Shown one piece after another: positions 262 to 14,751 of a DNA stretch of 14,791 bases. The stretch's first letter is position 1; the number at the start of each line of letters is the position of its first letter. The position numbers and the translations under genes are program-made. Origin of the DNA: Abditibacteriaceae bacterium (lineage in GTDB: Bacteria; Armatimonadota; Abditibacteriia; Abditibacteriales; Abditibacteriaceae); assembly GCA_031372065.1 (NCBI GenBank), contig JANMKN010000196.1, forward strand, positions 1 to 14,791. The letters are read 5' to 3'. The notes beneath the pieces were generated by a model. It worked only from the letters and a program-made list of their open reading frames with translations. It did not search any database and was not told the origin of the DNA.

Positions 262-795
262 TCAAGCCACGAAACCATCAAGCAGCGAACAAAGTGAGGC
301 TTCTATATTGTCGCTGGGCGCCGAGCCGCCGATGCCGCGCAGCACAATTTTATCTTTGATGTGGCTGCCTACGGTGCTGATTTCCATTTCGGTTGGATAA
401 AGGGCGAGCAAGGACACTTCGCCCAGCAATTTGCCCAAGAATCCCAGTTGATCCGGCCCTTGCACGATGATTTCAAGGGCGCTATCGGGCCGCCGCCGCA
501 CCTGAAAAACGCTCAACTGCGGCGGCGAAGCGGGTGTATGGACGGCGCGCTTGCCTGCCAAAGATAAATAATCTACGCCTTCTGGCGACAGCAGGCTGCG
601 CCGGAAATCCAGATGAAAAATGGCATCCCATTTGTGGCTAATTTGCTGGGTGGCGTGGCCTCCGACAACCGAAACTTGCCGCTCTGCCAGCCCCGACAGC
701 AAAAAAACCATCCAGTGTGGATGGGGAAACAAACCATCAATTCTTAACTCTTGCAGTCCGTTGGCGCTTGGTGTCACCGTTGCTTTTGGTATCAT
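262..795 (-). CDS. Hypothetical protein, probable tandem ACT-domain protein (resembles the GlnD C-terminal ACT pair)
   Basis: 177 aa with a GGAGAGG SD upstream. The C-terminal half LEIIVQGPDQLGFLGKLLGEVSLLALYPTEMEISTVGSHIKDKIVL follows the ACT pattern (LEV.A.DRPGLL..I...F...L.I..A.I.T.G....D.F.V). The N-terminal half looks like a more degenerate copy. Confidence 0.65.
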   Translation of the reverse strand: MIPKATVTPSANGLQELRIDGLFPHPHWMVFLLSGLAERQVSVVGGHATQQISHKWDAIFHLDFRRSLLSPEGVDYLSLAGKRAVHTPASPPQLSVFQVRRRPDSALEIIVQGPDQLGFLGKLLGEVSLLALYPTEMEISTVGSHIKDKIVLRGIGGSAPSDNIEASLCSLLDGFVA

Positions 796-927: not shown

Positions 928-2463
928 TTAGGAAATTACAGCTTGTGACAACATCCATGCTTCGTTTTCGACTTCGTCCGTATTTCGCTCGCCCACCAGT
1001 GAAATCAGCGAGCGACTTTCCTTGCCGGTATCGGAATCACGCGCTAAAGCCGTCACGCGCCCATTTTCGTCGCAGCGGAATTCGACGCTGATTAGCGGCT
1101 TGCCTTTGGGACGCGGTGGATTGGTATCCAGATTAAAAACGCCAACCGGCCCGGTGGCATAGGCTTCGGGGTCTTTGGCTTCGCCTTCGTAAACGCGCAC
1201 TTGCACCATCGTTTGCTGTTCTTGCGTGGTAGTGTAGCCATCACGCACCGCCGAGCAGGGCAGGGGCGTGAGCGCGGGAATAACGTGATCAATCAGCGCC
1301 GTGCCGTTTTTCAGCGCGGCCACGCCCAAGGAATGGCTAAGAACGTGACCGACGCGCACATCGGAAACGGTTTCGTCTTTGGTGAGAATCGCCGCTTGAA
1401 TGGCGGCGCCTTTGGCGACACATTCGTCGGGATCGTGCAAAAGCGGGCGACGACCTGTAACGCGGGTGAGCATTTCGCGCACCATCGGCATTCGCGAGGA
1501 GCCGCCCACGCAAATCGTTTCGCTAATGTCGGCCCAGGTCAGGCTGGCTTGCGACAGCACGCTGTCAATCAGCATTTCCGTGCGCGCCAGCAGGTCGGCG
1601 GTGATTTTTTCAAATTCCTCGCGCGAAATCTCCACGCGCACCGGAATAAAAGTCTCCATCGTGCTGCCGCCGGTGGCGATGGTGCGTTTGGTTTTGAATG
1701 TGATGGGAACTGTGGGGCGCCCTGTCAGTTGGCGTTTGGCGGCTTCGGCTTTGAGGCGCAGTTCCGCTTCGAGCAGCGGATCGGCTTCCATTTCGTAATC
1801 GAATTTTTTGGAAAGATCGTCTTCGATGTAGTTCATCAAACGATCATCCCAGTCTTTGCCGCCCAAATGCGGGTCGCCGCCGATAGCGATAACATCCAGC
1901 GAGTCGTTGTCAATCGCCAAAATCGTGACATCGAACGTGCCACCGCCGAGGTCGTAAACCAGAATGTTCCGGCGATGACCCCGCCGCGAAATGCCGTAAG
2001 ATAGCGCCGCTGCGGTTGGTTCGTTGATGATGCGCAAAACCTGCAAACCGGCCAGTTGACCGGCTTCGTAAGTGGCTTGGCGTTGAGCCTCCGTGAAGTA
2101 GGCCGGAACGGTAATAACCGCTTGTGTAACGCGGTCACCGAGTTCCATTTCGGCTTCCTGCACCAATTTACGCAAAATGATGGAGGAAATGAATTCTGGT
2201 GAAAACGATTCACTTCCCACCTGCACGCGGTAATCGCTCACGCCCATGAACCGCTTGACGAACTGCACCACTTTGCTCGGATCAGTCATGGTGGCTTGTA
2301 AGGCCACCTCTCCGACGACAAAAGTTGGCGGGTCGCAGAAGACGACCGATGGCGTCGTCACTTGTCCGTCCGTGTTCTTGACGACAACCGGCTTACCGTA
2401 TTCATCAATCGTGGATACGGCGGAATATGTTGTCCCCAAGTCTATGCCGACTGCGCGCCCCAA
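928..2463 (-). CDS. Hsp70/DnaK-family chaperone paralog lacking most of the C-terminal helical lid
   Basis: Motifs GIDLGTTYS, TTPSVV, AVITVPAYF, LRIINEPTAAAL, VYDLGGGTFDVTIL, HLGGKDWD, VGGSSRMP, DPDECVAKGAAIQA, and an SBD-beta region (VRVYEGE, PPRPKGKPLISVEF, DENG, DTGKE). TTG start with AGGAGG SD. Length 511 aa. Confidence 0.95.
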   Translation of the reverse strand: MGRAVGIDLGTTYSAVSTIDEYGKPVVVKNTDGQVTTPSVVFCDPPTFVVGEVALQATMTDPSKVVQFVKRFMGVSDYRVQVGSESFSPEFISSIILRKLVQEAEMELGDRVTQAVITVPAYFTEAQRQATYEAGQLAGLQVLRIINEPTAAALSYGISRRGHRRNILVYDLGGGTFDVTILAIDNDSLDVIAIGGDPHLGGKDWDDRLMNYIEDDLSKKFDYEMEADPLLEAELRLKAEAAKRQLTGRPTVPITFKTKRTIATGGSTMETFIPVRVEISREEFEKITADLLARTEMLIDSVLSQASLTWADISETICVGGSSRMPMVREMLTRVTGRRPLLHDPDECVAKGAAIQAAILTKDETVSDVRVGHVLSHSLGVAALKNGTALIDHVIPALTPLPCSAVRDGYTTTQEQQTMVQVRVYEGEAKDPEAYATGPVGVFNLDTNPPRPKGKPLISVEFRCDENGRVTALARDSDTGKESRSLISLVGERNTDEVENEAWMLSQAVIS

Positions 2464-2598: not shown

Positions 2599-3387
2599 TT
2601 AAGCCGGAGCGTTGCTACGTCCTACCACGACTTCGGCGACGCGGAAAATGTGCCCACGCAAATACCAACCACTGCGCACCACGCGCTGAATGGTGTTTTC
2701 TTGTTCCGGCGGCACTTTGACGACATCCAGTGCCTTATGGAATTTCGGATCGAACTGGCCTTCGGGTTTCTCCATCAAAGTGACCTCGCAGATGTGCAGC
2801 GCTTCAATCAATTGATCTCGAAAATGCTGAACATTCTGCCGCACATGGCTTGCTGATAACGTTTGCCGCCGCTCATCGTTTTCGGTGTGCTCGTAGGGCC
2901 GCACTTCTTCTTCAAAGAGTTCGAGCGAATCGTAGAGAAACAGCAATTGGCGAATCACCGGCTTCAGGTGTTCGTAGATGAAATCGTTTTTGTATTCGCC
3001 CAGTTCTTTGTGCAAAACATCGAACACTTTGCTCTGGTTGGATTCGTGTTCGCTGATTTCGACAAACGCTTGCTGCATCAATTCAATTTCTTGACGTAGC
3101 CGCGCCACCTCTTGGGCAATGGCCCCTGTTTGCGTGCTAATTTGTTGCGACAAAACAGTAGGTGTGATTGGCCCGGCGCCGGGCGCATTCTGTGAAGGCG
3201 TCATAACGGGATTCTTCCCTTGTGGAACTGTTTTTGCGGCGGGTTTTGCCTCCGTCGCTGAACCTGCCATGTTATTGGAGTCATCCGTTGTCGTTTCCTC
3301 TGTTGAGTCACTTTTCTTTGCAACCTCTCCCGTCAGCCGGGGCAGACGGAATTTCAATCCGAATCCACTACTTTGTTCTTCAGCCAT
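2599..3387 (-). CDS. GrpE-like nucleotide exchange factor with a long low-complexity N-terminus
   Basis: C-terminal GrpE head pattern GQFDPKFHKALDVV...ENTIQRVVRSGWYLRGHIFRVAEVVV, preceded by a coiled-coil-like segment. GGGAG SD. Lies directly upstream of the Hsp70 gene. Confidence 0.88.
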   Translation of the reverse strand: MAEEQSSGFGLKFRLPRLTGEVAKKSDSTEETTTDDSNNMAGSATEAKPAAKTVPQGKNPVMTPSQNAPGAGPITPTVLSQQISTQTGAIAQEVARLRQEIELMQQAFVEISEHESNQSKVFDVLHKELGEYKNDFIYEHLKPVIRQLLFLYDSLELFEEEVRPYEHTENDERRQTLSASHVRQNVQHFRDQLIEALHICEVTLMEKPEGQFDPKFHKALDVVKVPPEQENTIQRVVRSGWYLRGHIFRVAEVVVGRSNAPA

Positions 3388-3547: not shown

Positions 3548-3820
3548 TTACGGCTCCAAAACGCGAATGTAGCCTTGCGACACGGCCCAATCCACAAATG
3601 CTTGTGCATCTTGCGGCGGCGGGTCAGTGCGTTTTTTGACGGCATTGGCGCGTTGCACGACAACTCCCGCAAATTGTATATCATTCATGCCTTGAATGAA
3701 ACCGCGCATCAGCATTGGCGCCCGCCGTGCGGCTTCAGCCTTGGCCTGATGCAAAATGTCCTCCGCATCGCGGCCTTCAAATTCTTGTTTGATGTCTTCC
3801 ACTGTCAGTTCGATTTTCAT
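3548..3820 (-). CDS. Hypothetical 90-aa protein
   Basis: ATG-started ORF with globular-looking composition. It fills the gap 32 nt after the second E3-like gene in the same orientation. No family recognised. Confidence 0.75.
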   Translation of the reverse strand: MKIELTVEDIKQEFEGRDAEDILHQAKAEAARRAPMLMRGFIQGMNDIQFAGVVVQRANAVKKRTDPPPQDAQAFVDWAVSQGYIRVLEP

Positions 3821-3852: not shown

Positions 3853-5412
3853 TTAAGCAGAAACGCCGCCTTCCGAAAAATTCCCTCCGATGGCGCGCCG
3901 GGCGGCTTCGGCTAACACCTCACTAAAGGTCGGCGCGCCACACGGCACCTCGGCCAATTTTTGAACAGTTAAACCTAAATGCAAAGCCAAAGCCGCTTGA
4001 TTAATTAATTCGCTCGCGCACGGGCCGATGATTTGACAGCCCAAAATCGTGCCATCCGTCGCATCGGCGATGATTTTGACCATGCCACGATACTCGTTTT
4101 TTGTCGCCGCGCGCGCCGTATCATGAAAATGACAAACGCCGACATTGATTTCATGCCCGGCCCATTGCGCGGCGCGTTCGCCGTGCCCGATGGTTGCCAC
4201 TTCGGGCGTCGTGTAATAAACGTGCGGCACGACGGGCAAAGTGCGCGGTGCAAATCCCGTAACGATGTCCGCCACAAGCGCGCCTTCGGCCATCGCCTGA
4301 TGCGCCCATCCGGTGCCGCGTGTGCAATCACCAACCGCGAAAACACCCGGCACATTGGTTTGGCACTGCTCGTCCACCAAAACGCGCTCGTGCCGCGTGG
4401 TGATGCCCGCTACTTCCAAGTTCAAAGGCTCAGTGTTCGGCTTGCGGCCCGATGTGACGAGCAATTTTTCGACGGTGAGAGAGGAAGTTTGCTCATCTTG
4501 GCTCAAAGTCAGTTGCAAGCCGTCAGCATGGGCCTCAATCGCTTGCAATTTGTGGCCCGACAGCACGGCCATGCCGCCTTCGCGTAGCGCGGTTTCCAAT
4601 TCGCGCGCGATGTCGGGGTCTTCCAGCGGCAAAATGTGCGGCGAATAATCAATCAGCGTCACACGCACGCCCAGCATTTGAAACAACTGCGCGAATTCAA
4701 CGCCGAGCGCGCCGCCGCCGATAACAGCCATCGAAGACGGCAATTTTTCCAGTTCCCAAATTTGGCGCGTGGACAAAACATTCGGCAAATCCACGCCCGG
4801 CACTTGCAAACGGCACGGCACTGCACCGGTGGCAATCAGCACATTAACCGCTGTCACGCTGCGCACCACTTGATCGCCGCGCACAATTTCGACAGTGTGC
4901 GATTCGACAAAACGCGCGCGGCCCGGCAAAATCTGCACGCCCAAGGCTTCGAGATGCGCCTGCGTATGCCCGCGCACTTCGCTCGTGACTTTTTCGCGCC
5001 GCGCCCAAAATTCGACGAAATCGAAACTGCCGCTGGCGCGCAAGCCAAATTCTTCAGCGCGTTGCATATCGCGCAGCAAATTGGCCGCGCAAAGCAACGC
5101 TTTGATGGGCAAACCGCCGCGATTGATATGCACGCCGCCGATTTCGCGCGATTCGATTAAGCCAACGCGTGCGCCTTGCTCGGCGGCGCGCAAAGCCGCC
5201 GTGTAACCTCCCGGCCCGCCGCCGATGATGAGCAAATCGAAATCGTGCGGCGCGCCTTCGCGCAAAAGCTGCTCGGCGGCTTCGACAATAGATTCGCTAT
5301 CAAATTCCGGCAACGCCTCGGCGACGGCGCCTTCGGTTTGCGTCGTCGCCGCGTTTTGCGATTCCGAATGAGGGGTCAAGGGGGCTGTCATGGACAACAT
5401 TCTCGCGCTCAA
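3853..5412 (-). CDS. Dihydrolipoyl dehydrogenase-like FAD/NAD flavoprotein lacking the redox disulfide and catalytic His
   Basis: FAD motif IIGGGPGGY, IATG, NAD motif VIGGGALGVE, GRKPN, VFAVGD, TPEVATIG and the dimerisation domain are all present. GGVHINRGGLPIK replaces GGVCxxxGCIPSK, and GAPTFSE replaces PHPTLSE. Start uncertain (TTG 5412 with AGGA upstream, or later ATGs). Confidence 0.9.
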   Translation of the reverse strand: MSARMLSMTAPLTPHSESQNAATTQTEGAVAEALPEFDSESIVEAAEQLLREGAPHDFDLLIIGGGPGGYTAALRAAEQGARVGLIESREIGGVHINRGGLPIKALLCAANLLRDMQRAEEFGLRASGSFDFVEFWARREKVTSEVRGHTQAHLEALGVQILPGRARFVESHTVEIVRGDQVVRSVTAVNVLIATGAVPCRLQVPGVDLPNVLSTRQIWELEKLPSSMAVIGGGALGVEFAQLFQMLGVRVTLIDYSPHILPLEDPDIARELETALREGGMAVLSGHKLQAIEAHADGLQLTLSQDEQTSSLTVEKLLVTSGRKPNTEPLNLEVAGITTRHERVLVDEQCQTNVPGVFAVGDCTRGTGWAHQAMAEGALVADIVTGFAPRTLPVVPHVYYTTPEVATIGHGERAAQWAGHEINVGVCHFHDTARAATKNEYRGMVKIIADATDGTILGCQIIGPCASELINQAALALHLGLTVQKLAEVPCGAPTFSEVLAEAARRAIGGNFSEGGVSA

Positions 5413-5465
5413 TAAACTTCCTGAGCAAAAAGTTACTTTAAAATGCCAAAAGGGATGGGGGTTCT

Positions 5466-6872
5466 CTACTTTTTCGGCCTATGAATATGCGTCGCTTGGC
5501 CGAAAAGCACTTCGGCGGATTCCATCATGGTTTCCGAAAGCGTCGGATGCGGGTGGATGGTCAGTTTCACGTCGCTGGCGACGGCGCCCATTTCGATGGC
5601 AAGTGTGCCTTCGGCGATCAGTTCGCCCGCGCCCGGCCCGGCGATGCCGACGCCTAAAACGCGCTCGGTTTCGGGGTCGGTGATGATTTTCGTGACGCCA
5701 TCGCTGCGGTCAAGCGTTGTAGCGCGGCCCGATGCGGCCCACGGAAAACGCGACACAGTAATCTTGCGCCCTTCTTTTTCCGCTTGCGTTTCGGTCAGTC
5801 CGGCCCACGCGATTTCGGGGTCAGTGAAAACCACAGCCGGAATCGCTTGCGGTTCCCAGACGGCGTTGTGACCGGCGATGACTTCGACGGCTAAACGGCC
5901 CTCGTGCGAGGCTTTGTGTGCCAGCATCGGTTCGCCTGCGATGTCGCCGATGGCGTAAATTGTCGGCTCAACGGTGCGCCTTTGGGCATCCACTTCGATA
6001 AAACCGCGTTTATCGGGCGCAATCCGCGTGTTTTCTAAGCCCAAATCCTGCGAATTGGGCACGCGTCCGATGGAAATCAGCACTTTTTCAAATATTTGCT
6101 CTTTTTCCATGACTTTTTCGCCTTCAAAAGTCACTTTGACGCCGTTTTTTACTTCTTTCATGCTGACGACTTTGGTTTCCATCAGCATGGCGTGCATTTT
6201 GGTTTTGATGTGGCCTTCGAGAACCTTTACCAAATCGCGGTCGGCGCCCGGCAAAAGCGTCGGCGTCATTTCGACAACCGTCACTTTGGTGCCCAAAGCC
6301 GCGTAAACGCTGCCCAGTTCAAGACCGATATAGCCGCCGCCAACCACCAAAAGCGTTGCAGGAATGTTTTCCAATTGTAGCGCGCCGGTTGAATCCATGA
6401 TGCGCGGGCTGCCAATATCGAAAGCCGGAATTTTGGCCGGACGCGAACCGGTGGCTAAAATGGCGTGTTCAAAACTCAGTTTTTGCGTGCCTTCGGCGGT
6501 TTCGATATCAAGTTCGCTGGCAGAAGCAAATTTCGCGCGGCCTTTGATATAAGTCACTTTGCGCGCTTTGACCAGTTGGCCCAAACCGCCGGTCATTTTG
6601 GCGACGACGCTTTCTTTCCACGCGCGCATTTTGTCGAGATCAATCTTCGGCTCGGCGAAAGTCAGGCCGATATTTTCGGCTTCGCGCGCTTCATTGAGCA
6701 ATTTGGCGACGTGCAACAGCGCCTTGGAAGGAATGCAGCCGCGATACAAACACACGCCACCGGGGTTGGTTTCCATCTCAACAAGCGTGGTTTCAATGCC
6801 AAGGTCAGCGGCCAAAAAAGCGGCGGCATACCCGCCGGGGCCGCCGCCAATCACTACCAGTTTCGTTTTCAT
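5466..6872 (-). CDS. lpdA: Dihydrolipoyl dehydrogenase (E3)
   Basis: VIGGGPGGY, GGVCLYRGCIPSKALL, VVGGGYIGLE, MLAHKASHEG and IHPHPTLSE are all canonical. Homology begins at ATG 6872 (MKTKLVVIG). An alternative in-frame GTG lies at 6938. Confidence 0.97.
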   Translation of the reverse strand: MKTKLVVIGGGPGGYAAAFLAADLGIETTLVEMETNPGGVCLYRGCIPSKALLHVAKLLNEAREAENIGLTFAEPKIDLDKMRAWKESVVAKMTGGLGQLVKARKVTYIKGRAKFASASELDIETAEGTQKLSFEHAILATGSRPAKIPAFDIGSPRIMDSTGALQLENIPATLLVVGGGYIGLELGSVYAALGTKVTVVEMTPTLLPGADRDLVKVLEGHIKTKMHAMLMETKVVSMKEVKNGVKVTFEGEKVMEKEQIFEKVLISIGRVPNSQDLGLENTRIAPDKRGFIEVDAQRRTVEPTIYAIGDIAGEPMLAHKASHEGRLAVEVIAGHNAVWEPQAIPAVVFTDPEIAWAGLTETQAEKEGRKITVSRFPWAASGRATTLDRSDGVTKIITDPETERVLGVGIAGPGAGELIAEGTLAIEMGAVASDVKLTIHPHPTLSETMMESAEVLFGQATHIHRPKK

Positions 6873-6943: not shown

Positions 6944-8323
6944 TCATCCTTCGAGAGACATCAAAAAAGGCTGTTCGAGGGCGTTGCAAATCCAGCGCAG
7001 GAAGCGGGCGCCGTCGGCGCCGTCAATGACGCGGTGGTCGTAGCTGAGACTGAGTGGAAGCATCAGTCGTGGCTCGAAAGTTTGGCCGTTCCAAAATGGC
7101 TCGATGCCGCCGCGTGATAAGCCGAGGATTGCCACTTCGGGCGCGTTGACAATTGGCGTAAAATTGGTGCCGCCGATGCCGCCCAAATTGGTGATAGTGA
7201 AACAGCCGCCCTGCATTTCTTCGAGCGTTGTTTTCTTTTCGCGCGCGCGTTCGGCAATTTTGTTCAACTCGACGGCGATTTCCACGATGTTCAATTTGTC
7301 CACATCGCGCACAACCGGCACCATCAAACCGCGCGGCGTATCAACCGCCACGCCGATGTTGTAGTAATTCTTGAAAATCTGCTCGTTGCTGCCCATGTCC
7401 AAGCTGGAATTGAACTGCGGAAACTTTTTCAGGGCCCCGGTCACGACTTTTAAAATGATGGCCGTTACGGTCAGTTTGGCGCCTGCGGATTCGGCTTGTT
7501 TGCCATATTGCTTGCGCAGTTTTTCCAGTTCAGTGATGTCGGCTTTGTCGAACTGCGTAACGTGCGGAATCGTTGACCACGAACGCGCCATTTGCTCGGC
7601 AGTCGCGCGGCGAATGCCCGACAAGGGCTTGCGTTCGACGCTGCCCCACTTAGCAAAATCGGGTAGCGGCGCGGCGGGCACTCCATTGGAATAGCCTACC
7701 GGCGCAGCAACTTTGGCAACCGCATTCTTGACATCGGCGAAACCGACGCGCCCGTTGGGGCCGCTGCCTTTGACCGACGCCAAATCCACACCTAATTCGC
7801 GCGCCAGACGGCGCACGCTGGGCGCGGCAGCAATGCTGGCGCCTGAAACAGCGGACGCGGCAGCCACGGCGGGCAGGGCATGGCTTATGCCATTTGGAGA
7901 ACCGTTGGGCGAACCATTCGACTGCGCCAATTGGGAAGGCGGCACCAGTTTTTTGTCTTTGCCGGCGTCTTCGTCTTCTTTGTCGTCTATGCCGGTTGCC
8001 ATACCTTGCTGCTGCTCTCCGGTGGCTTTAACATCGGCTTCTTTGCTGTCGGCGGCTTCGGTTTTGGCTTCCGTTTTCGCTTCGCTTCCAGCGGCTTCAA
8101 ACGACATCACCGCTTGGCCGACTTTCACTTCGTCGCCTTCTTTGACGGAAATGCCCGCGATTTTGCCGCCTTGCGGCGCTGGAACAGGCACAACTGATTT
8201 GCCGGTTTCGAGTTCGAGAAGCGGCTGGCCTTCTTCGACCTGCTCGCCCACCGACACCAAAATTCCGGCCACTGTGCCGGATTCTACACCTTCGCCCAAA
8301 GAGGGCAATTTAAATTCTGTCAT
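6944..8323 (-). CDS. aceF: Dihydrolipoyllysine acetyltransferase (E2) with a single lipoyl domain
   Basis: Lipoyl domain FKLPSLGEGVESGTV...LELETGKS, an Ala/Glu/Lys-rich linker, the subunit-binding domain APSVRRLARELGVDL..VKGSGPNGRV, and catalytic-domain motifs FTITNLGGIGG and SYDHRVIDGADGARF. ATG 8323 has a GAAGG SD. Confidence 0.96.
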   Translation of the reverse strand: MTEFKLPSLGEGVESGTVAGILVSVGEQVEEGQPLLELETGKSVVPVPAPQGGKIAGISVKEGDEVKVGQAVMSFEAAGSEAKTEAKTEAADSKEADVKATGEQQQGMATGIDDKEDEDAGKDKKLVPPSQLAQSNGSPNGSPNGISHALPAVAAASAVSGASIAAAPSVRRLARELGVDLASVKGSGPNGRVGFADVKNAVAKVAAPVGYSNGVPAAPLPDFAKWGSVERKPLSGIRRATAEQMARSWSTIPHVTQFDKADITELEKLRKQYGKQAESAGAKLTVTAIILKVVTGALKKFPQFNSSLDMGSNEQIFKNYYNIGVAVDTPRGLMVPVVRDVDKLNIVEIAVELNKIAERAREKKTTLEEMQGGCFTITNLGGIGGTNFTPIVNAPEVAILGLSRGGIEPFWNGQTFEPRLMLPLSLSYDHRVIDGADGARFLRWICNALEQPFLMSLEG

Positions 8324-8338
8324 GGTGTTACCTTCTTC

Positions 8339-8437
8339 AATAGAACGCAAATCGCGCGAATTATCGCTAATTTACGCAAACTTTCTTTGAAAAGATTTGC
8401 GTAAATTGGCGTTTGTTTGCGAAATTCGCGTTCTATT
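8339..8437. repeat. Long imperfect hairpin built from 9-10-nt CGCnAA units between aceE and aceF
   Basis: AATAGAACGC (8339-8348) pairs with GCGTTCTATT (8428-8437). CGCTAATTTACGCAAA (8365-8380) pairs with TTTGCGTAAATTGGCG (8396-8411) with one non-Watson-Crick position. Confidence 0.85.
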
Positions 8438-11196
8438 TAACCAGCTAAACCCGGCCAGACAATATCAGTCAACGGATTGAGTTTGTCCGGGTTGATGTTC
8501 ATTTCTTTCAGCGCATTTTGCACCACGTCCGGCTTGATTTTGCCTTGCTCGACCAATGCGGTTAGCGTCGCCAAAACGATATAGCGATGATCTACTTCAA
8601 AGAAATCGCGCAGGGCGTGACGGCTTTCGCTGCGGCCAAAGCCATCTGTCCCCAGTGAATACAAGCGGCCCGGCACCCAACTGCGAATCGAATCGGGCAG
8701 AATCTTCATGTAATCGCTGCTCGCCACGAAAACGCCGTCTTTGGCGCTTTGCAATTGCTGCGTCACGAAAGGCACCCGCTTTTCTTCGCCGGGATGCAGC
8801 AAGTTGTAGCGCTCGCATTCCAAACCGTCGCGGTTCAGTTCTTTGTAACTGGTTACGCTCCACACATCGGCGGCGACTTTGTATTTTTCTTCGAGAACGG
8901 CTTGCGCCTTCACGACTTCGTTCAAAATCGTGCCGCTGCCAAACAGAGTCGCTTTGAGTTTGGATTTGCTTTGCGACTTTTTGAAAGGATACATTCCCTT
9001 GAGAATGCCTTCTTTGATGCCTTCGCCTTCAGGCATCGGCGGCTGCGCGTAGGTTTCGTTCATCAGCGTGATGTAATAGAAAACCGCTTCGCCGTTTTCA
9101 TACATACGCCGCAAGCCTTCGCGGATAATAATCGCCAATTCGTAAGCGTAAGCCGGGTCGTAGGCTAACAAGTTCGGAAAAGTGTAAGCCAGCAAATGCG
9201 AGTGCCCGTCTTCGTGCTGCAAGCCTTCGCCGTTGAGCGTGGTGCGTCCGGCTGTGGCGCCGAGCATAAAGCCACGGGCGCGGATATCGGCAGCCAACCA
9301 CACCAAATCGCCGACACGCTGCGGGCCGAACATCGAATAGTAAATGTAAAACGGAATCGTATTTACGCCATGCGTGGAATACGCTGTGCCCGCCGCGATG
9401 AAACTCGACATGGCACCGGCTTCGTTGATGCCTTCTTCGAGAATCTGCCCGTTTTTTGATTCCTTGTAATACGCCAGTTCTTTGCGGTCAACCGGCTCGT
9501 AAAGCTGCCCGACGCTGGAATAAATGCCGTAAGAACCAAACAAGCCATCCAAACCGAAAGTGCGCGCTTCGTCGGGGATAATCGGCACGACTAACTTGCC
9601 GATTTCCTTGTTGCGCAAGAGCTTGCGCAGGACATTGCCAAAAGCCATCGTGGTGGAGGCTTCGTGACCGTCAGAGCCTTTGTAAAACTCTTCAAAGTCT
9701 TTTTCGAGCGGCGTTTTAAATTCCGGCACCAGCATCGAACGCTGCGGAACCGGGCCACCCAAAGCGGCGCGGCGCTCTTTGATGTATTTTACTTCGGGGC
9801 TGTCTTCGGCGGGACGATAAAACTTCAGCTTGCGCGCGTCATCGTCGGAAATCGGAATCTCGAAGCGGTGCGCAAATTGAACCGTCGCTTCTTCTTCCAT
9901 TTTCTTGGCGTTGTGCGCGCCCATTTTGCCTTCGGCAGATTCGCCCAGCCCGTAACCTTTGACGGTTTTCGCCAAAATAACCGTTGGCTGGCCGCTATGA
10001 TTGACCGCCGCGTGATAAGCGGCGTAAACCTTTTCGGGATCGTGCCCGCCGCGCTTGATTTTGCGGATTTCTTCGTCGGAAAGCTGGCTGGCGAGCTTTT
10101 GCAAATACGGCGTGTTGAAGAAGTGTTCGCGCGCATACGCGCCGGTTTCGACGGTGTATTTCTGATATTGACCGTCCACCACTTCGCCCATGCGACGCAC
10201 CAATTCGCCGGTTTCGTCAGCTTCAATTAATGGGTCCCAACCGCTGCCCCAAACCACCTTAATAACGTTCCAACCGGCACCACGGAACAAGCCTTCGAGT
10301 TCCTGAATAATCTTGCCGTTGCCGCGAACCGGGCCATCCAAACGCTGCAAGTTGCAGTTGATAACCCACGTCAGGTTGTCGAGTTTTTCGCGGCCCGCGA
10401 GCGTAATCGAGCCGAGCGATTCGGGTTCGTCGCATTCGCCGTCGCCCAAAAAGGCCCAGACGCGCGAATCGCTCGCGTCTTTGTGGCCGCGATGCTCCAT
10501 GTAGCGGTTAAAACGCGCCTGATAAATGGAAAGAATCGGCCCAAGACCCATCGAAACCGTCGGGAACTGCCAGAAATCCGGCATCAGCCACGGATGCGGA
10601 TAGGATGAAAGTCCTCCGGCGGGCTGCAATTCTTGGCGGAAGTTGATGAGTTGCTGTTCGCTCAGGCGTCCTTCGAGAAAAGCGCGCGCATAAGGGCCGG
10701 GTGAGCCGTGTCCTTGGAAGAAAATCTGGTCGCCCGAACTACGCTGCGCGCCCTTGCCGTTGGGCGCTTTGAAAAAGTGGTTAAAACCCACTTCCAAAAG
10801 CGTCGCGGACGAGGCGTAGGTGGAAATATGGCCGCCGACTTCGATGGCTTTGCCGCTGGGGTCTTTGACTTTCTGAGCGCGCAGCACCATCGCCATCGCA
10901 TTCCAGCGGATAATGCTTTTGATGCGCCGTTCGATTTCGCGGTCGCCGGGATACTCCGGTTGCGCGCGGCGCGGAATGCTATTGATGTAAGGTGTGGTGG
11001 CGGCGAAGGGGATTTTAACCCCGTTGCGCTGCGCGTGAATTTCCAGATGCTTGAGCAATTCGGCTACGCGTTCGGGGCCGCCGGATTCCAAGACAAAGTC
11101 TAAGGAATCCAGCCATTCCTGCGTTTCAATTTGCTCGATTTGAGAAGAAGATTGAGCCTCGGCCTCAACATCGGAAGCCATTTCGAGAGTCGCCAT
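8437..11196 (-). CDS. aceE: Pyruvate dehydrogenase E1, homodimeric type
   Basis: ETQEWLDSL, IRWNAMAMV, GGHISTYAS, FQGHGSPG, GLSSYPHPWLMP, PTVSMGLGP, the ThDP motif GDGECDEPES...NCNLQRLDG, PDEARTFG, GRTTLNGEGLQH and LGTDGFGRS. AAAGGA SD upstream. Confidence 0.98.
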   Translation of the reverse strand: MATLEMASDVEAEAQSSSQIEQIETQEWLDSLDFVLESGGPERVAELLKHLEIHAQRNGVKIPFAATTPYINSIPRRAQPEYPGDREIERRIKSIIRWNAMAMVLRAQKVKDPSGKAIEVGGHISTYASSATLLEVGFNHFFKAPNGKGAQRSSGDQIFFQGHGSPGPYARAFLEGRLSEQQLINFRQELQPAGGLSSYPHPWLMPDFWQFPTVSMGLGPILSIYQARFNRYMEHRGHKDASDSRVWAFLGDGECDEPESLGSITLAGREKLDNLTWVINCNLQRLDGPVRGNGKIIQELEGLFRGAGWNVIKVVWGSGWDPLIEADETGELVRRMGEVVDGQYQKYTVETGAYAREHFFNTPYLQKLASQLSDEEIRKIKRGGHDPEKVYAAYHAAVNHSGQPTVILAKTVKGYGLGESAEGKMGAHNAKKMEEEATVQFAHRFEIPISDDDARKLKFYRPAEDSPEVKYIKERRAALGGPVPQRSMLVPEFKTPLEKDFEEFYKGSDGHEASTTMAFGNVLRKLLRNKEIGKLVVPIIPDEARTFGLDGLFGSYGIYSSVGQLYEPVDRKELAYYKESKNGQILEEGINEAGAMSSFIAAGTAYSTHGVNTIPFYIYYSMFGPQRVGDLVWLAADIRARGFMLGATAGRTTLNGEGLQHEDGHSHLLAYTFPNLLAYDPAYAYELAIIIREGLRRMYENGEAVFYYITLMNETYAQPPMPEGEGIKEGILKGMYPFKKSQSKSKLKATLFGSGTILNEVVKAQAVLEEKYKVAADVWSVTSYKELNRDGLECERYNLLHPGEEKRVPFVTQQLQSAKDGVFVASSDYMKILPDSIRSWVPGRLYSLGTDGFGRSESRHALRDFFEVDHRYIVLATLTALVEQGKIKPDVVQNALKEMNINPDKLNPLTDIVWPGLAG

Positions 11197-11673: not shown

Positions 11674-14145
11674 ATGTCCCGTTTTCATAAATCGTGCGCC
11701 CTTTTGTTCGTGCCGCTTGTTCTGATCTTTGCGCCTCTGCGTGCCGATGTGACTAAAAATTGGGACGAGGCGAATGCAGCCATCGCCGTTGCGAAGACTC
11801 CTCTGGAAAAGGCCAATGCGCTCTATCAAAAGGCGGGTTTGCCGCTGGCGTGGTTCGAGAAATCCACGCGAGCCGATTGGGAAGAAGCGGGCAGGGCGAT
11901 GGACGAGGCGTTTAAGCTGCTCGATCAAGTTTCCAACGATGGCAAAGGCAAAATTGCAGGGCAGGACGCCTTTTATTTTCGGCGCGGTTATGTCGCTAAC
12001 AAGCTGGACAATTTTACCGGTGCGGTCAATTTCTACAATGAGGCCGAAAAAGCGGGCTATCTGGCCCAGCACGCCACCAATCGCAACAAAGGGGCGGAAC
12101 TTTATAGCAATCGCGCCGAGGCCAAAGCCGCGCTTTATGACTTCGCGGGCGCTCTGGCCGATTTAGAGCAAGCTATCGCGCTCAACAATAACTATATTTG
12201 GGTCAGGCAACGCGCCGAAACGCGCTTTGAGATGGGCGATTGGGACGGCGCTGTGGCCGATTGGAAACGCGTCGTCGAACTGAATCCGAATGAGAAAATC
12301 GAGCGCGAGGTCGCTGATTTGTTGGATAACACGCCAAAGAACGAAATCAAAATGCCGTTTGACCGCTATTTAGTGCCTTTCAATAAAGCCATTGCCGACA
12401 ATCCAAACAGCGCCGCGCCGTTTGTGGCGCGCGCCCGGCATCGCTTGGCGCGCGTGCAGAGGGAATTGAAATACGAATTCGGCATTATGCGCAGCTTCAA
12501 GCAAACAGAGGCCAATAAAACGGCAAAAAGCATTCTCCGCGATTTAAATCGCGCTATTGCCCTTGAGCCGAAAAATGCCGCCGCATGGCGCGAACGCGGC
12601 AAAACGCGCGGTTATTTCTGGGTTCTGAGCGAAGGAAATGGCCTTGACTTCGACGAAAAGGCGCCTCTGCTCGATTTCAATCGCGCTTTGAATTTGGAAG
12701 ACAGCAACGCTTTGACGCGTTTCGAGACGGGCTTTTATCTTCTCACTCGCTCCTCGCCGCAGCCGGGCAAACCTGTGCCGGGAGATTTAAAAGAGCGTCG
12801 CAAATTCGATTTGCAGACTGCGATCATGAACTTCAGCCGTGCCATCGTGAAAGCGCCGGAAGCCAATGCCGACGCGCATTATCATCGCGCTTTTGCCGAG
12901 CGTCAAACCGAAACTCCCGACCAGAACACGCTTTTGGTGGATTATTCCGCCGTTATCGCGCAGCAAATGAAAGGCATCGGCGATGCGCCCGACGACGGCG
13001 AAAAAAGCGATATGCTTTCAGCGGCCCGTGTGATGCGCGGCAAGATTTTACTGTCGCGCGGCCAACGTAACGTGGCGTTGCAAGATTTCGACGCAGCCAT
13101 CAAAGTAGCCAGTTTGAATTACGAGGCACGCTTCGAGCGCGGCAAATTACGCGTTATTCGCGGCGAATACGAAGATGCTTTAGAAGACCTTGAGGTCGTC
13201 ACAGAAAACACCCGTTCCGCCGAAGCGTGGCTGTGGAAAGCGGCGGCGCAGGACAGCAAAGGCGACACCGAACAAGCCAAAACTGCGTTGCAAGAAGCCT
13301 TCAAACGCGACGCTAATCTGAAAAGTCGCGTGCGCGGCACTCGCTACGACGAAGCCACTCCAACGCAAAAGCCACTCGCCCCCGCGCCCGATAAAAACGA
13401 CGCGAAACTGCTCACCGGCACCGCTTTGGAACACAAAAACGCCGGCAACGAATTGTTGAATAAAGGCAATGCGAGCGGGGCGTTGGCCGAATATAGCGCG
13501 GCGATTTTGCTTGACCCTAACTTTGCCGACGGCTACAACAATCGCGGCGGGCGCTATGTCGTGCAGGAGAAATACGACTTGGCGCTGGCCGATTTAAATC
13601 GCGCCATCGAACTTGACCCCAAACATCGTCTCGCTTACTTTAATCGCTCCTTTGTTTGGAGAAGCCTGCGCGATGCCGAAAAGCAAGGCGCCGATTTAGA
13701 CCGCGCCATCGAATATGCCGACACGCCCGAAGGCAAAGCCACCGCTTATGTGATGCGCGCTGTCGCAAAAGCCGAAACCAACCCGGCCAGCGCGCAAGCC
13801 GATTTGACTGCCGCCGTCGCCACTGCGCCCAAAGACGCCCCTATTTTAGATCAAAGCGGGCGTCTTTTCCTTTATTTTCAGCGCAACGACACCGCGCGCG
13901 ACACCTTTCGTCGCCTGCTGGAACTTCAGCCCTCCAACAACACCGCGCGCCTGCATTTATCCTTCGCTTTAGCCGCCTTAAACGACGAAGCCGCGCCGGG
14001 CGAATTTGAAAAAGCCTTTGCCAACGCCAAAGCTGCCGAAGTCGCCGATGCCAAGGGCACCTTGGATGAAGTCCTCAAACACCAGCCCGATTCCGCCCTG
14101 CTCAAAACCATGAAAGAGCGCCTCGCCAACCCCAAAACGCCGTAA
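11674..14145 (+). CDS. Tetratricopeptide-repeat protein with a probable Sec signal peptide
   Basis: Basic N-terminus, hydrophobic core ALLFVPLVLIFA and a plausible cleavage after PLRA. Many TPR consensus units, e.g. AELYSNRAEAKAALYDFAGALADLEQAIALN and ADGYNNRGGRYVVQEKYDLALADLNRAIELDP. Confidence 0.93.
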   Translation: MSRFHKSCALLFVPLVLIFAPLRADVTKNWDEANAAIAVAKTPLEKANALYQKAGLPLAWFEKSTRADWEEAGRAMDEAFKLLDQVSNDGKGKIAGQDAFYFRRGYVANKLDNFTGAVNFYNEAEKAGYLAQHATNRNKGAELYSNRAEAKAALYDFAGALADLEQAIALNNNYIWVRQRAETRFEMGDWDGAVADWKRVVELNPNEKIEREVADLLDNTPKNEIKMPFDRYLVPFNKAIADNPNSAAPFVARARHRLARVQRELKYEFGIMRSFKQTEANKTAKSILRDLNRAIALEPKNAAAWRERGKTRGYFWVLSEGNGLDFDEKAPLLDFNRALNLEDSNALTRFETGFYLLTRSSPQPGKPVPGDLKERRKFDLQTAIMNFSRAIVKAPEANADAHYHRAFAERQTETPDQNTLLVDYSAVIAQQMKGIGDAPDDGEKSDMLSAARVMRGKILLSRGQRNVALQDFDAAIKVASLNYEARFERGKLRVIRGEYEDALEDLEVVTENTRSAEAWLWKAAAQDSKGDTEQAKTALQEAFKRDANLKSRVRGTRYDEATPTQKPLAPAPDKNDAKLLTGTALEHKNAGNELLNKGNASGALAEYSAAILLDPNFADGYNNRGGRYVVQEKYDLALADLNRAIELDPKHRLAYFNRSFVWRSLRDAEKQGADLDRAIEYADTPEGKATAYVMRAVAKAETNPASAQADLTAAVATAPKDAPILDQSGRLFLYFQRNDTARDTFRRLLELQPSNNTARLHLSFALAALNDEAAPGEFEKAFANAKAAEVADAKGTLDEVLKHQPDSALLKTMKERLANPKTP

Positions 14146-14179: not shown

Positions 14180-14575
14180 CGGGGACACTCATATCATTTA
14201 TGGCGGCACTCCTATCTCCTGTAGCGGGACGCTTTTGGTTCGCGAAGGCGCGTGTAACAGTTGTGGGGGCAGGGTTTGTCCCTGTTCCCCTCCACGACAT
14301 GAGTCGGGCAACAGGACAGGGCAAGCCCTGCCCCTACAAATCGCGCGTTTCGGCATTTTTATCGCCTGTGGAGGCAGGCTTATGTCGTGTGGAGGCACTC
14401 ATATGGTTTATGGCGGCCCTCCTATGTCGTGTGGGTGCATTAATATTCATATGAGTGCCTCCACAAACGATATGAGTGCCGCCACAAACGATATGAGTGC
14501 CGCCATAAACCATATGAGTGCCGCCACACGGCATAGGAATGCACCCACAAGCGATATGAATGCGGCAATAGACAA
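14180..14575. repeat. Degenerate 21-bp tandem repeat array arranged as two inverted arms centred at about 14447-14448
   Basis: Right-arm units start at 14450, 14471, 14492, 14513, 14534 and 14555 (consensus TATGAGTGCCGCCACAAACGA). Left-arm reverse-complement units start at 14180, 14201, 14348, 14369, 14390, 14411 and 14432 (consensus TGGMGGCACTCATAT-N6). Confidence 0.9.
14261..14339. repeat. GTAG-type REP doublet (REPIN-like)
   Basis: Left copy TTGTGGGGGCAGGGTTTGTCCCTGTTCC (14261-14288). Inverted right copy at 14314-14339 reads TTGTAGGGGCAGGGCTTGCCCTGTCC on the minus strand. Each copy is a GTRG tetramer plus an internal palindrome. Confidence 0.8.
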
Positions 14576-14751
14576 TTGGAGGACGCCTTGCCGCGTGTTT
14601 AATGGCGTAACTCAAGTCCAGCGACTGAAAGCGCGGTTCAAACGCGGCCAAGTCGCTCTGCGGTGACAGAATAAAAGCCCTTTTTCAGTCCGAACAAGGC
14701 GAATTTTGCTCATTTGGAGCCGTGAATTCATTCGCCATCCAGAAAAAGCGT

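Follow-up and report, generated by a model that had tools for sequence, protein, structure and literature searches.

Relatives of the E3 enzyme that lack redox cysteines have so far been known as isolated cases. One is Irc15p, a yeast E3 paralogue in which both redox cysteines are replaced (C44Y/C49A-type changes) and the His-Glu dyad is kept. In the accessible part of its description (PMC6296175), Irc15p is an FAD-binding dimer that is reduced by NADH and shows diaphorase and menadione reductase activity with no disulfide activity; it is also a microtubule-associated protein, for which a binding or regulatory role has been proposed. Mycobacterial LpdA keeps one cysteine, is missing both the His and the Glu (PMC6296175, available in part), and acts as a quinone reductase (PMC6296175 and PMC5423352, both available in part). 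The transhydrogenase SthA, as given in the available portion of PMC9460512, is defined by a CxxxxT and a YxxxxE motif.

The window, meaning the whole 14,791-nucleotide stretch of Abditibacteriaceae DNA analyzed here, encodes at 3853..5412 (minus strand, as are all features below unless marked) an E3-like protein of 515–519 aa that lacks the catalytic Cys-Cys-His and is an ortholog of the standalone Armatimonadota E3. The original prediction of an intact 519-aa frame 53 nt after the lpdA stop codon is correct except for its TTG start, which is doubtful because the deposited protein record (P0003) begins at the ATG at 5400 (515 aa) and the orthologues are 503–519 aa long; residue numbers here are counted from the TTG. 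The former redox-disulfide loop (5101..5139) reads GGVHINRGGLPIK, versus GGVCLYRGCIPSK in the adjacent LpdA, with Cys changed to His95, Cys changed to Gly100, and Lys104 kept, so that H95xxxxG100 stands in place of the redox-active CxxxxC. At the former His-Glu dyad (3919..3945), PCGAPTFSE replaces the IHPHPTLSE of LpdA; the C-terminal HPTxxE is incomplete, with Ala493 for the catalytic His and Glu498 kept, and the usual C-terminal tail beyond it is missing. These substitutions, which the original prediction had listed, are not due to chance or sequencing error, since all 11 genus-level orthologues (62–85% identity) carry H95 and have lost both Cys and the His. As that prediction also held, a protein that has lost both Cys and the His would be incapable of E3 dithiol-disulfide chemistry (dihydrolipoamide oxidation), judging from its sequence. 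A cysteine two residues before the lost His, which had been singled out as a feature, is shared by just 3/11 genus rows, and Cys491 is thereby ruled out as a relocated redox cysteine.

The cofactor sites are kept, as had been claimed. The FAD-binding GxGxxG (residues 64–69; 5206..5223) has its three glycines in 56/56 rows of the family alignment; the NAD-binding GxGxxG with Glu239, plus Asp255 (4648..4719), is eroded in several other altered lineages; and a family signature, GDCxRxxGWAH, surrounds the FAD-binding Asp362 (4300..4332; C363 in 56/56 and W369 in 52/56 rows). Besides both GxGxxG motifs, the protein retains E87, ATG, K104, E239, D255, R323, D362, and E498, and all 12 residues checked in the FAD and NAD Rossmann motifs, the acidic NAD determinant, and the Lys-Glu pair are present. 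Two features had been overlooked, namely the tail loss and a 55-residue N-terminal extension, which contains an invariant helix with the motif D..IVExAExxLRxxxPHDF (residues 38–58; 5239..5301), preceded by a disordered acidic and proline-rich leader. AlphaFold2 predicts a complete four-domain E3 fold (pLDDT 87.3); the model matches 2eq6 in Foldseek (TM 0.82/0.92) and Thermus E3s in VIA (Z 48, rmsd 2.0–2.2 over about 450 residues).

E3 is the best family and fold match (TIGR01350; Thermus 2eq6/2eq7, Geobacillus 1ebd). The E3-like protein narrowly misses the TIGR01350 cut-off (405.3 versus 408.8 bits), which its intact orthologues clear (519.7 and 492.3 bits); the adjacent LpdA scores 510.6 bits. 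It scores 291.9 bits against a cut-off of 465 for SthA (NF003585), 285 against 479 for the LpdA-type NAD(P)H-quinone reductase (NF005883), and 329.4 against 454.45 for MerA (TIGR02053). HxxxxG and AxxxxE stand where SthA has CxxxxT and YxxxxE, and neither the inner CxxxxC nor the C-terminal Cys-Cys of MerA is found in the sequence. The LpdA-type quinone reductase pattern, in which one Cys is kept and His and Glu are lost, does not fit a protein that has no Cys and keeps the Glu, and the NF005883/1xdi-type LpdA ranks far below true E3s as a match. The expectation that the protein lies outside the characterized Cys-deficient families is therefore borne out, as it falls below the cut-off of every one of them.

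The E3-like protein shares 30% identity with the adjacent LpdA and falls in a clade of the phylum's standalone E3s, apart from the aceEF-linked and sucB-linked E3s. This rules out a recent lpdA duplication. Descent from E3s is evident from the nesting of the protein among catalytically intact Armatimonadota E3s. A family-alignment search finds a match at E ≤ 1e-125 in 99/151 phylum genomes, exactly one in each, and all 18 loci returned from outside the class have an intact Cys-Cys-His set and the C-terminal AIH/LH tail; we infer that the standalone lineage is the phylum's housekeeping E3. A metagenome scan with the genus alignment gave no relative, a genome scan gave only distant family members, and a DNA-pattern search returned six loci, five with intact motifs and one truncated by the contig boundary downstream of its intact Cys pair. 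The window's genome also encodes two other intact, operon-linked E3s, a true SthA (567.6 bits), and one further disulfide reductase; the other E3s and SthA pass their NCBIfam cut-offs. With two other intact E3s in the genome, the lipoamide chemistry of this copy would be redundant.

Loss of the catalytic residues has occurred repeatedly within this lineage. When membership is set by the helix or the GDCxRxxW motif, with three fragments dropped, Cys-Cys-His is altered in 24/44 complete lineage members versus 2/219 other E3-family matches, both of which retain the Cys pair; these fractions are not rates, because the protein sets are redundant and enriched for diverged sequences. An orthologue is present in 26/31 class genomes, with both Cys lost in seven of the 26, and was not found in G001, G004, G007, G010, and G020, of which G004 consists of two contigs and the others are fragmented. 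In a tree built without the motif columns, the triad changed at least eight times among 42 rows; a second tree, of 25 rows, requires at least six changes and places altered forms inside groups of intact ones with bootstrap values of 94–100. A single origin of the Cys-less forms is ruled out (p-AU 1.4e-7, with seven altered rows held together among 19).

The changes themselves vary. Cys to His at position 95 recurs in the window's genus, G042, G025, and P0131; the sister proteins of the window protein, G003 and P0012, have each lost K104 together with E239; G008, P0128, P0131, and P0228 lack a portion of the NAD motif; and altered singletons have long branches and differing substitutions. The most eroded orthologue, in G008 (L066:9144-10682), is an open 513-aa frame in which the Cys loop is replaced and the NAD motif and HPT are gone; its helix and gene order are retained. 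A tail-like C-terminal pattern is found in 8/44 lineage proteins versus 166/219 others. In the accessible part of PMC4293902, Azotobacter E3 is inactivated by deletion of its last 14 residues, so even members with intact motifs may be poor E3s. In their source records, altered members carry names such as dihydrolipoamide dehydrogenase or NADPH-glutathione reductase, which amounts to mis-annotation; one altered member, P0035, is named there from Abditibacterium utsteinense.

The N-terminal helix has outlasted these losses. Its residues A46, E47, R51, P55, H56, and D57 are found in all 56 family rows, as are the FAD glycines, G232, and C363, while the catalytic C95, C100, and H493 are kept in 33, 34, and 35 rows, respectively; the 50%-representative rows were ranked by a profile that contains the helix, which favors helix-keeping rows, and clustering at 50% enriches for diverged members. 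Among the 25 altered rows, the AExxLRxxxPHD residues are kept in all 25 and the full set of 12 FAD, NAD, and Lys-Glu residues in 13. G008 keeps 10/12 helix columns versus 9/37 NAD-domain columns, and the Cys-less G025 keeps 1/12 helix columns. The helix is modeled at moderate confidence (pLDDT 62–72) and lies beyond the segment that aligns with solved E3s; a search of the genome with its profile gave no further copy.

We read the E3-like protein as a redundant E3 that has turned into a pseudoenzyme and is held by a binding role, a sequence-based interpretation to which we assign a probability of about 0.5. The binding role is likely carried by the invariant helix, rather than consisting in dedicated PDH regulation. 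The protein descends from a standalone lineage whose members in the rest of the phylum keep their catalytic residues, and the other E3s and the transhydrogenase of the genome would make its lipoamide chemistry redundant. On the family stem, the AExxLRxxxPHD helix became fixed and the C-terminal tail disappeared. Many separate losses of Cys-Cys-His came next, and several lineages went on to lose the Lys-Glu pair and the NAD motif but not the helix. The present protein would still be a dimer that holds FAD, with the helix as its presumed docking site for a partner. In the window's genus, its flavin is predicted to remain reducible by NADH, as in Irc15p, and to give diaphorase activity in vitro; such a flavin could serve as a redox switch on binding.

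Several observations weigh against a binding-role pseudoenzyme. The first Cys is kept in 33/56 rows and the Cys pair in 19/26 genomes, so catalysis still seems to be selected in many lineages. The helix could simply pack against the FAD domain of the same protein, and little of it is left in the Cys-less G025. The gene was not found in 5/31 class genomes, and selection on G008 is relaxed (dN/dS 0.51). Finally, all 12 cofactor residues are retained in 9/11 genus rows, and the changes in this genus beside the flavin and the channel, which follow a long stem, would fit a new chemistry.

These last observations also support a different reading, in which the genus protein is a new NADH:acceptor oxidoreductase (a diaphorase, quinone reductase, or oxidase) with a remodeled channel, and the other lineages decay independently. 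An acidic residue at position 255 is present in 11/11 genus rows, the genus stem is long (0.58–0.78) and its crown branches are short, and 39 residues are fixed in the genus, including H95, H153, R216, W219, and H397. Aligned to E3 positions, the fixed changes 214–219 (STRQIW), H95, and H153 map next to the flavin or the former substrate channel. Irc15p and mycobacterial LpdA, moreover, reduce quinones and dyes (PMC6296175, available in part). However, G003 and P0012 lack K104 and E239 and still have dN/dS values of 0.10–0.15, other altered lineages lack the NAD motif, and no membrane, quinone, or electron-transfer gene was seen among the conserved neighbors. An oxidoreductase also leaves the invariant helix unexplained, and in vitro diaphorase activity is expected under the binding-role reading too. 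We regard a new oxidoreductase as the main rival reading and as a tentative possibility.

If the pseudoenzyme is instead held by binding, its gene neighborhood offers candidate partners. Directly downstream lies a gene for a conserved, family-restricted 90-aa protein (3548..3820), present in 20/31 class genomes; it matches no Pfam or NCBIfam entry at E ≤ 0.001, none of its fold comparisons exceeds Z 3.5, and its predicted model is confident (pLDDT 93.8). It is followed by a GrpE-like gene (2599..3387; PF01025, 69.8 bits), whose order is conserved, and by a 511-aa short Hsp70-like gene (928..2463; PF00012). The latter belongs to a family-specific group (E ≤ 1e-100) found in 26/26 other family genomes and 0/4 other class genomes, with one to five matches per genome. 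In most relatives, the next slot holds a degenerate, membrane-anchored J-like gene (a weak PF00226 match at E < 1e-3 in one of six tested). In the window, this slot is taken by an ACT-like protein (262..795), an atlas lead; such a gene stands in for the J-like gene after the Hsp70-like gene in G000 and G002, and the idea that it does so in all relatives is wrong. This family-specific expansion of short Hsp70s with GrpE-like and membrane-anchored J-like genes may constitute a specialized chaperone system.

Some further features of these genes were observed. The atlas neighbors of the ACT-like gene are unnamed clusters from Myxococcota and Thermodesulfobacteriota, and the HPD of the J-like proteins reads DHR or DHH. 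A second chaperone copy lies at G000:C199:6762-9374, and a J-like gene lies on G000:C281 at about 4985-5591.

The E3-like gene lies upstream of the GrpE-like gene in 14/22 family genomes, often with the 90-aa gene in between, and it follows a TPR gene in 4/4 genomes of other families. It is unlinked from the chaperone set in 8/22 family genomes, and the Hsp70 group also occurs where the E3-like gene is elsewhere or was not found; the synteny is thus conserved, and an obligate partnership is rejected. The gene order favors the chaperone side over PDH. Speculatively, the neighboring GrpE/Hsp70/J-like set or the 90-aa protein could be the partner of the helix. A stronger version, in which the family is turning an ancestral E3 into an NADH-sensing adaptor whose helix docks on the Hsp70/GrpE/J-like set, with catalytic residues then shed in parallel at least eight times, is doubtful. 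If true, it would provide a natural enzyme-to-pseudoenzyme series and link redox state to a specialized chaperone system.

On the other side of the gene lie the PDH genes, with intact lpdA, the PDH E3 (5466..6872), as the immediate upstream neighbor and aceE and aceF beyond it (6944..11196). The original prediction tied the protein to PDH and proposed testing whether its position after lpdA is conserved. What stands is the order in the window's genus, which is the same in all three genus genomes that have the gene. The E3-like gene has the same orientation as lpdA and lies 53–74 nt downstream of it, and no terminator-like site is listed for the gap; a promoter and terminator scan near it gave about shuffle levels, and a search for RNA runs listed none. 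Together with the full E3 fold, this arrangement would suit a dead subunit that regulates PDH by forming a heterodimer with LpdA or by occupying the E3-binding domain of AceF.

The wider tie is weakly supported. Adjacency, and with it linkage to aceE and aceF, is limited to 4/26 class genomes of two genera, namely the three of the window's genus and G005, in which Cys-Cys-His is intact. The PDH genes of G006 lie about 8 kb upstream of the E3-like gene, and the fetched flanks (up to about 10 kb, shorter at contig ends) of 4/7 Cys-less genomes (G008, G042, G025, and G027) contain no PDH genes. The link to PDH is therefore weak, and the distance from LpdA in identity and clade further argues against a PDH regulator, which we consider unlikely. 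A weaker point concerns Asp344 and Glu431, which we take to be the E3 contacts to the E2 binding domain, although a literature search gave no confirmation: the acidic residue expected to contact that domain is His here, and is acidic in 2/56 family rows but also in only 5/17 outgroup rows.

Three other observations come from this side of the window. In the lipoyl domain of aceF (about 8195-8210), the lipoylation motif is ETGKS, not ETDKA, in exactly 4/11 aligned genomes; these are exactly the genomes in which the E3-like gene follows lpdA, which probably reflects shared operon ancestry. Divergent from aceE is a gene for an 823-aa TPR protein with a signal-peptide-like start (11674-14145, plus strand). 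At about 14300-14650 there are short repeats and overlapping ORFs with CGGTHMVY/MSAATN-type peptides, and a similar, possibly dispersed repeat is present on G000:C281.

A redundant E3 might also be slowly heading to loss, from intact to eroded to deleted, with selection acting only against misfolding or for operon integrity. All three states are present in the class (19 intact, seven with both Cys lost, and five with the gene not found among 31 genomes), and the long-branched singletons with their different substitutions and the relaxed G008 branch fit such a course. Within the window's genus, however, the 11 aligned orthologues are all full length and free of stops at a synonymous distance of about 1–1.8. 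Pairwise dN/dS values of the E3-like gene in three genus genomes are 0.115, 0.19, and 0.22, compared with 0.10–0.17 for lpdA and 0.10–0.19 for aceF, and a one-ratio maximum-likelihood codon model gives 0.123. As 11/11 orthologues lack the triad and dN/dS is about 0.12, like that of the neighboring lpdA, the gene is under purifying selection and pseudogene decay in the genus is ruled out. For the short terminal branch leading to the window's copy, dN/dS is estimated at 0.20, a value not significantly different from 1 (2dL 3.3). Values elsewhere are 0.04–0.17 for intact trios and 0.11 for the independent Cys-less branch G042, and comparisons with other families are saturated. Slow loss also fails to account for the invariant helix and is very unlikely.

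The weakest alternative, a dead or regulatory partner for a core-less lipoyl/E3-binding-domain protein and orphan E1alpha/E1beta, is scarcely credible: the genome does have a 169-aa lipoyl plus E3-binding didomain without an E2 core and scattered E1alpha/E1beta genes, but didomain and E1alpha were not found in G011, G015, and G019, where the E3-like gene is intact, are present in G004, G007, and G020, where it was not found, and the lipoyl Lys is kept whatever the state of the E3-like gene, so that an obligate link has no support from presence and absence.

The didomain gene lies at L196:1489-1995 (G000:C150), and orphan E1alpha/E1beta genes lie at L238/L199 (C190) and L236:5627-6646 (C213), both kinds being conserved across the class; the didomain and E1 genes together were not found in G011, G015, and G019. 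At L269, L270, and L271, from three genomes of other families, didomain and E1 genes cluster by eye with FabG-like, two ketosynthase-like, hydrolase-like, and glycosyltransferase-like ORFs, which suggests an E1-fed acyl or glycolipid biosynthetic pathway.

The E3-like protein is thus real, conserved, outside the known families, and lineage-restricted. In one orthologous lineage, the catalytic set is intact in some members and partly or fully altered in others, and in some genomes the gene was not found; together with the parallel losses and a helix that outlasts catalysis, this allows direct tests of how a pseudoenzyme arises, through side-by-side comparison of intact and dead orthologues. The phenomenon is restricted to a single little-studied class, and what the protein does is proposed from its sequence. 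A literature search, with subscription journals mostly outside its scope, found no paper on the E3-like protein and gave no confirmation for a trypanosome E3 that is presumably annotated 'point mutation'.

Among known systems, E3 itself differs from this protein in having the CxxxxC, the catalytic His, and the C-terminal tail, and in lacking the added N-terminal helix. SthA resembles it in having the fold of a flavoprotein disulfide reductase but neither the disulfide nor the His, and the actinobacterial LpdA quinone reductase (NF005883, 1xdi) resembles it as an E3-like protein with no His dyad and no disulfide chemistry. Irc15p, compared by description only, is likewise E3-derived, has both cysteines replaced, and coexists with an intact E3 elsewhere in the same genome. 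As Irc15p is already a characterized E3 paralogue without both cysteines (PMC6296175, available in part), the original expectation of an undescribed kind of protein is not upheld, and the E3-like protein is a variant of a kind that is not itself new. By analogy, it appears to work like an Irc15p-type dead E3, and it belongs to none of the families compared. Unlike Irc15p, it has also lost the His, has an independent bacterial origin repeated many times in one lineage, and carries an added N-terminal helix.
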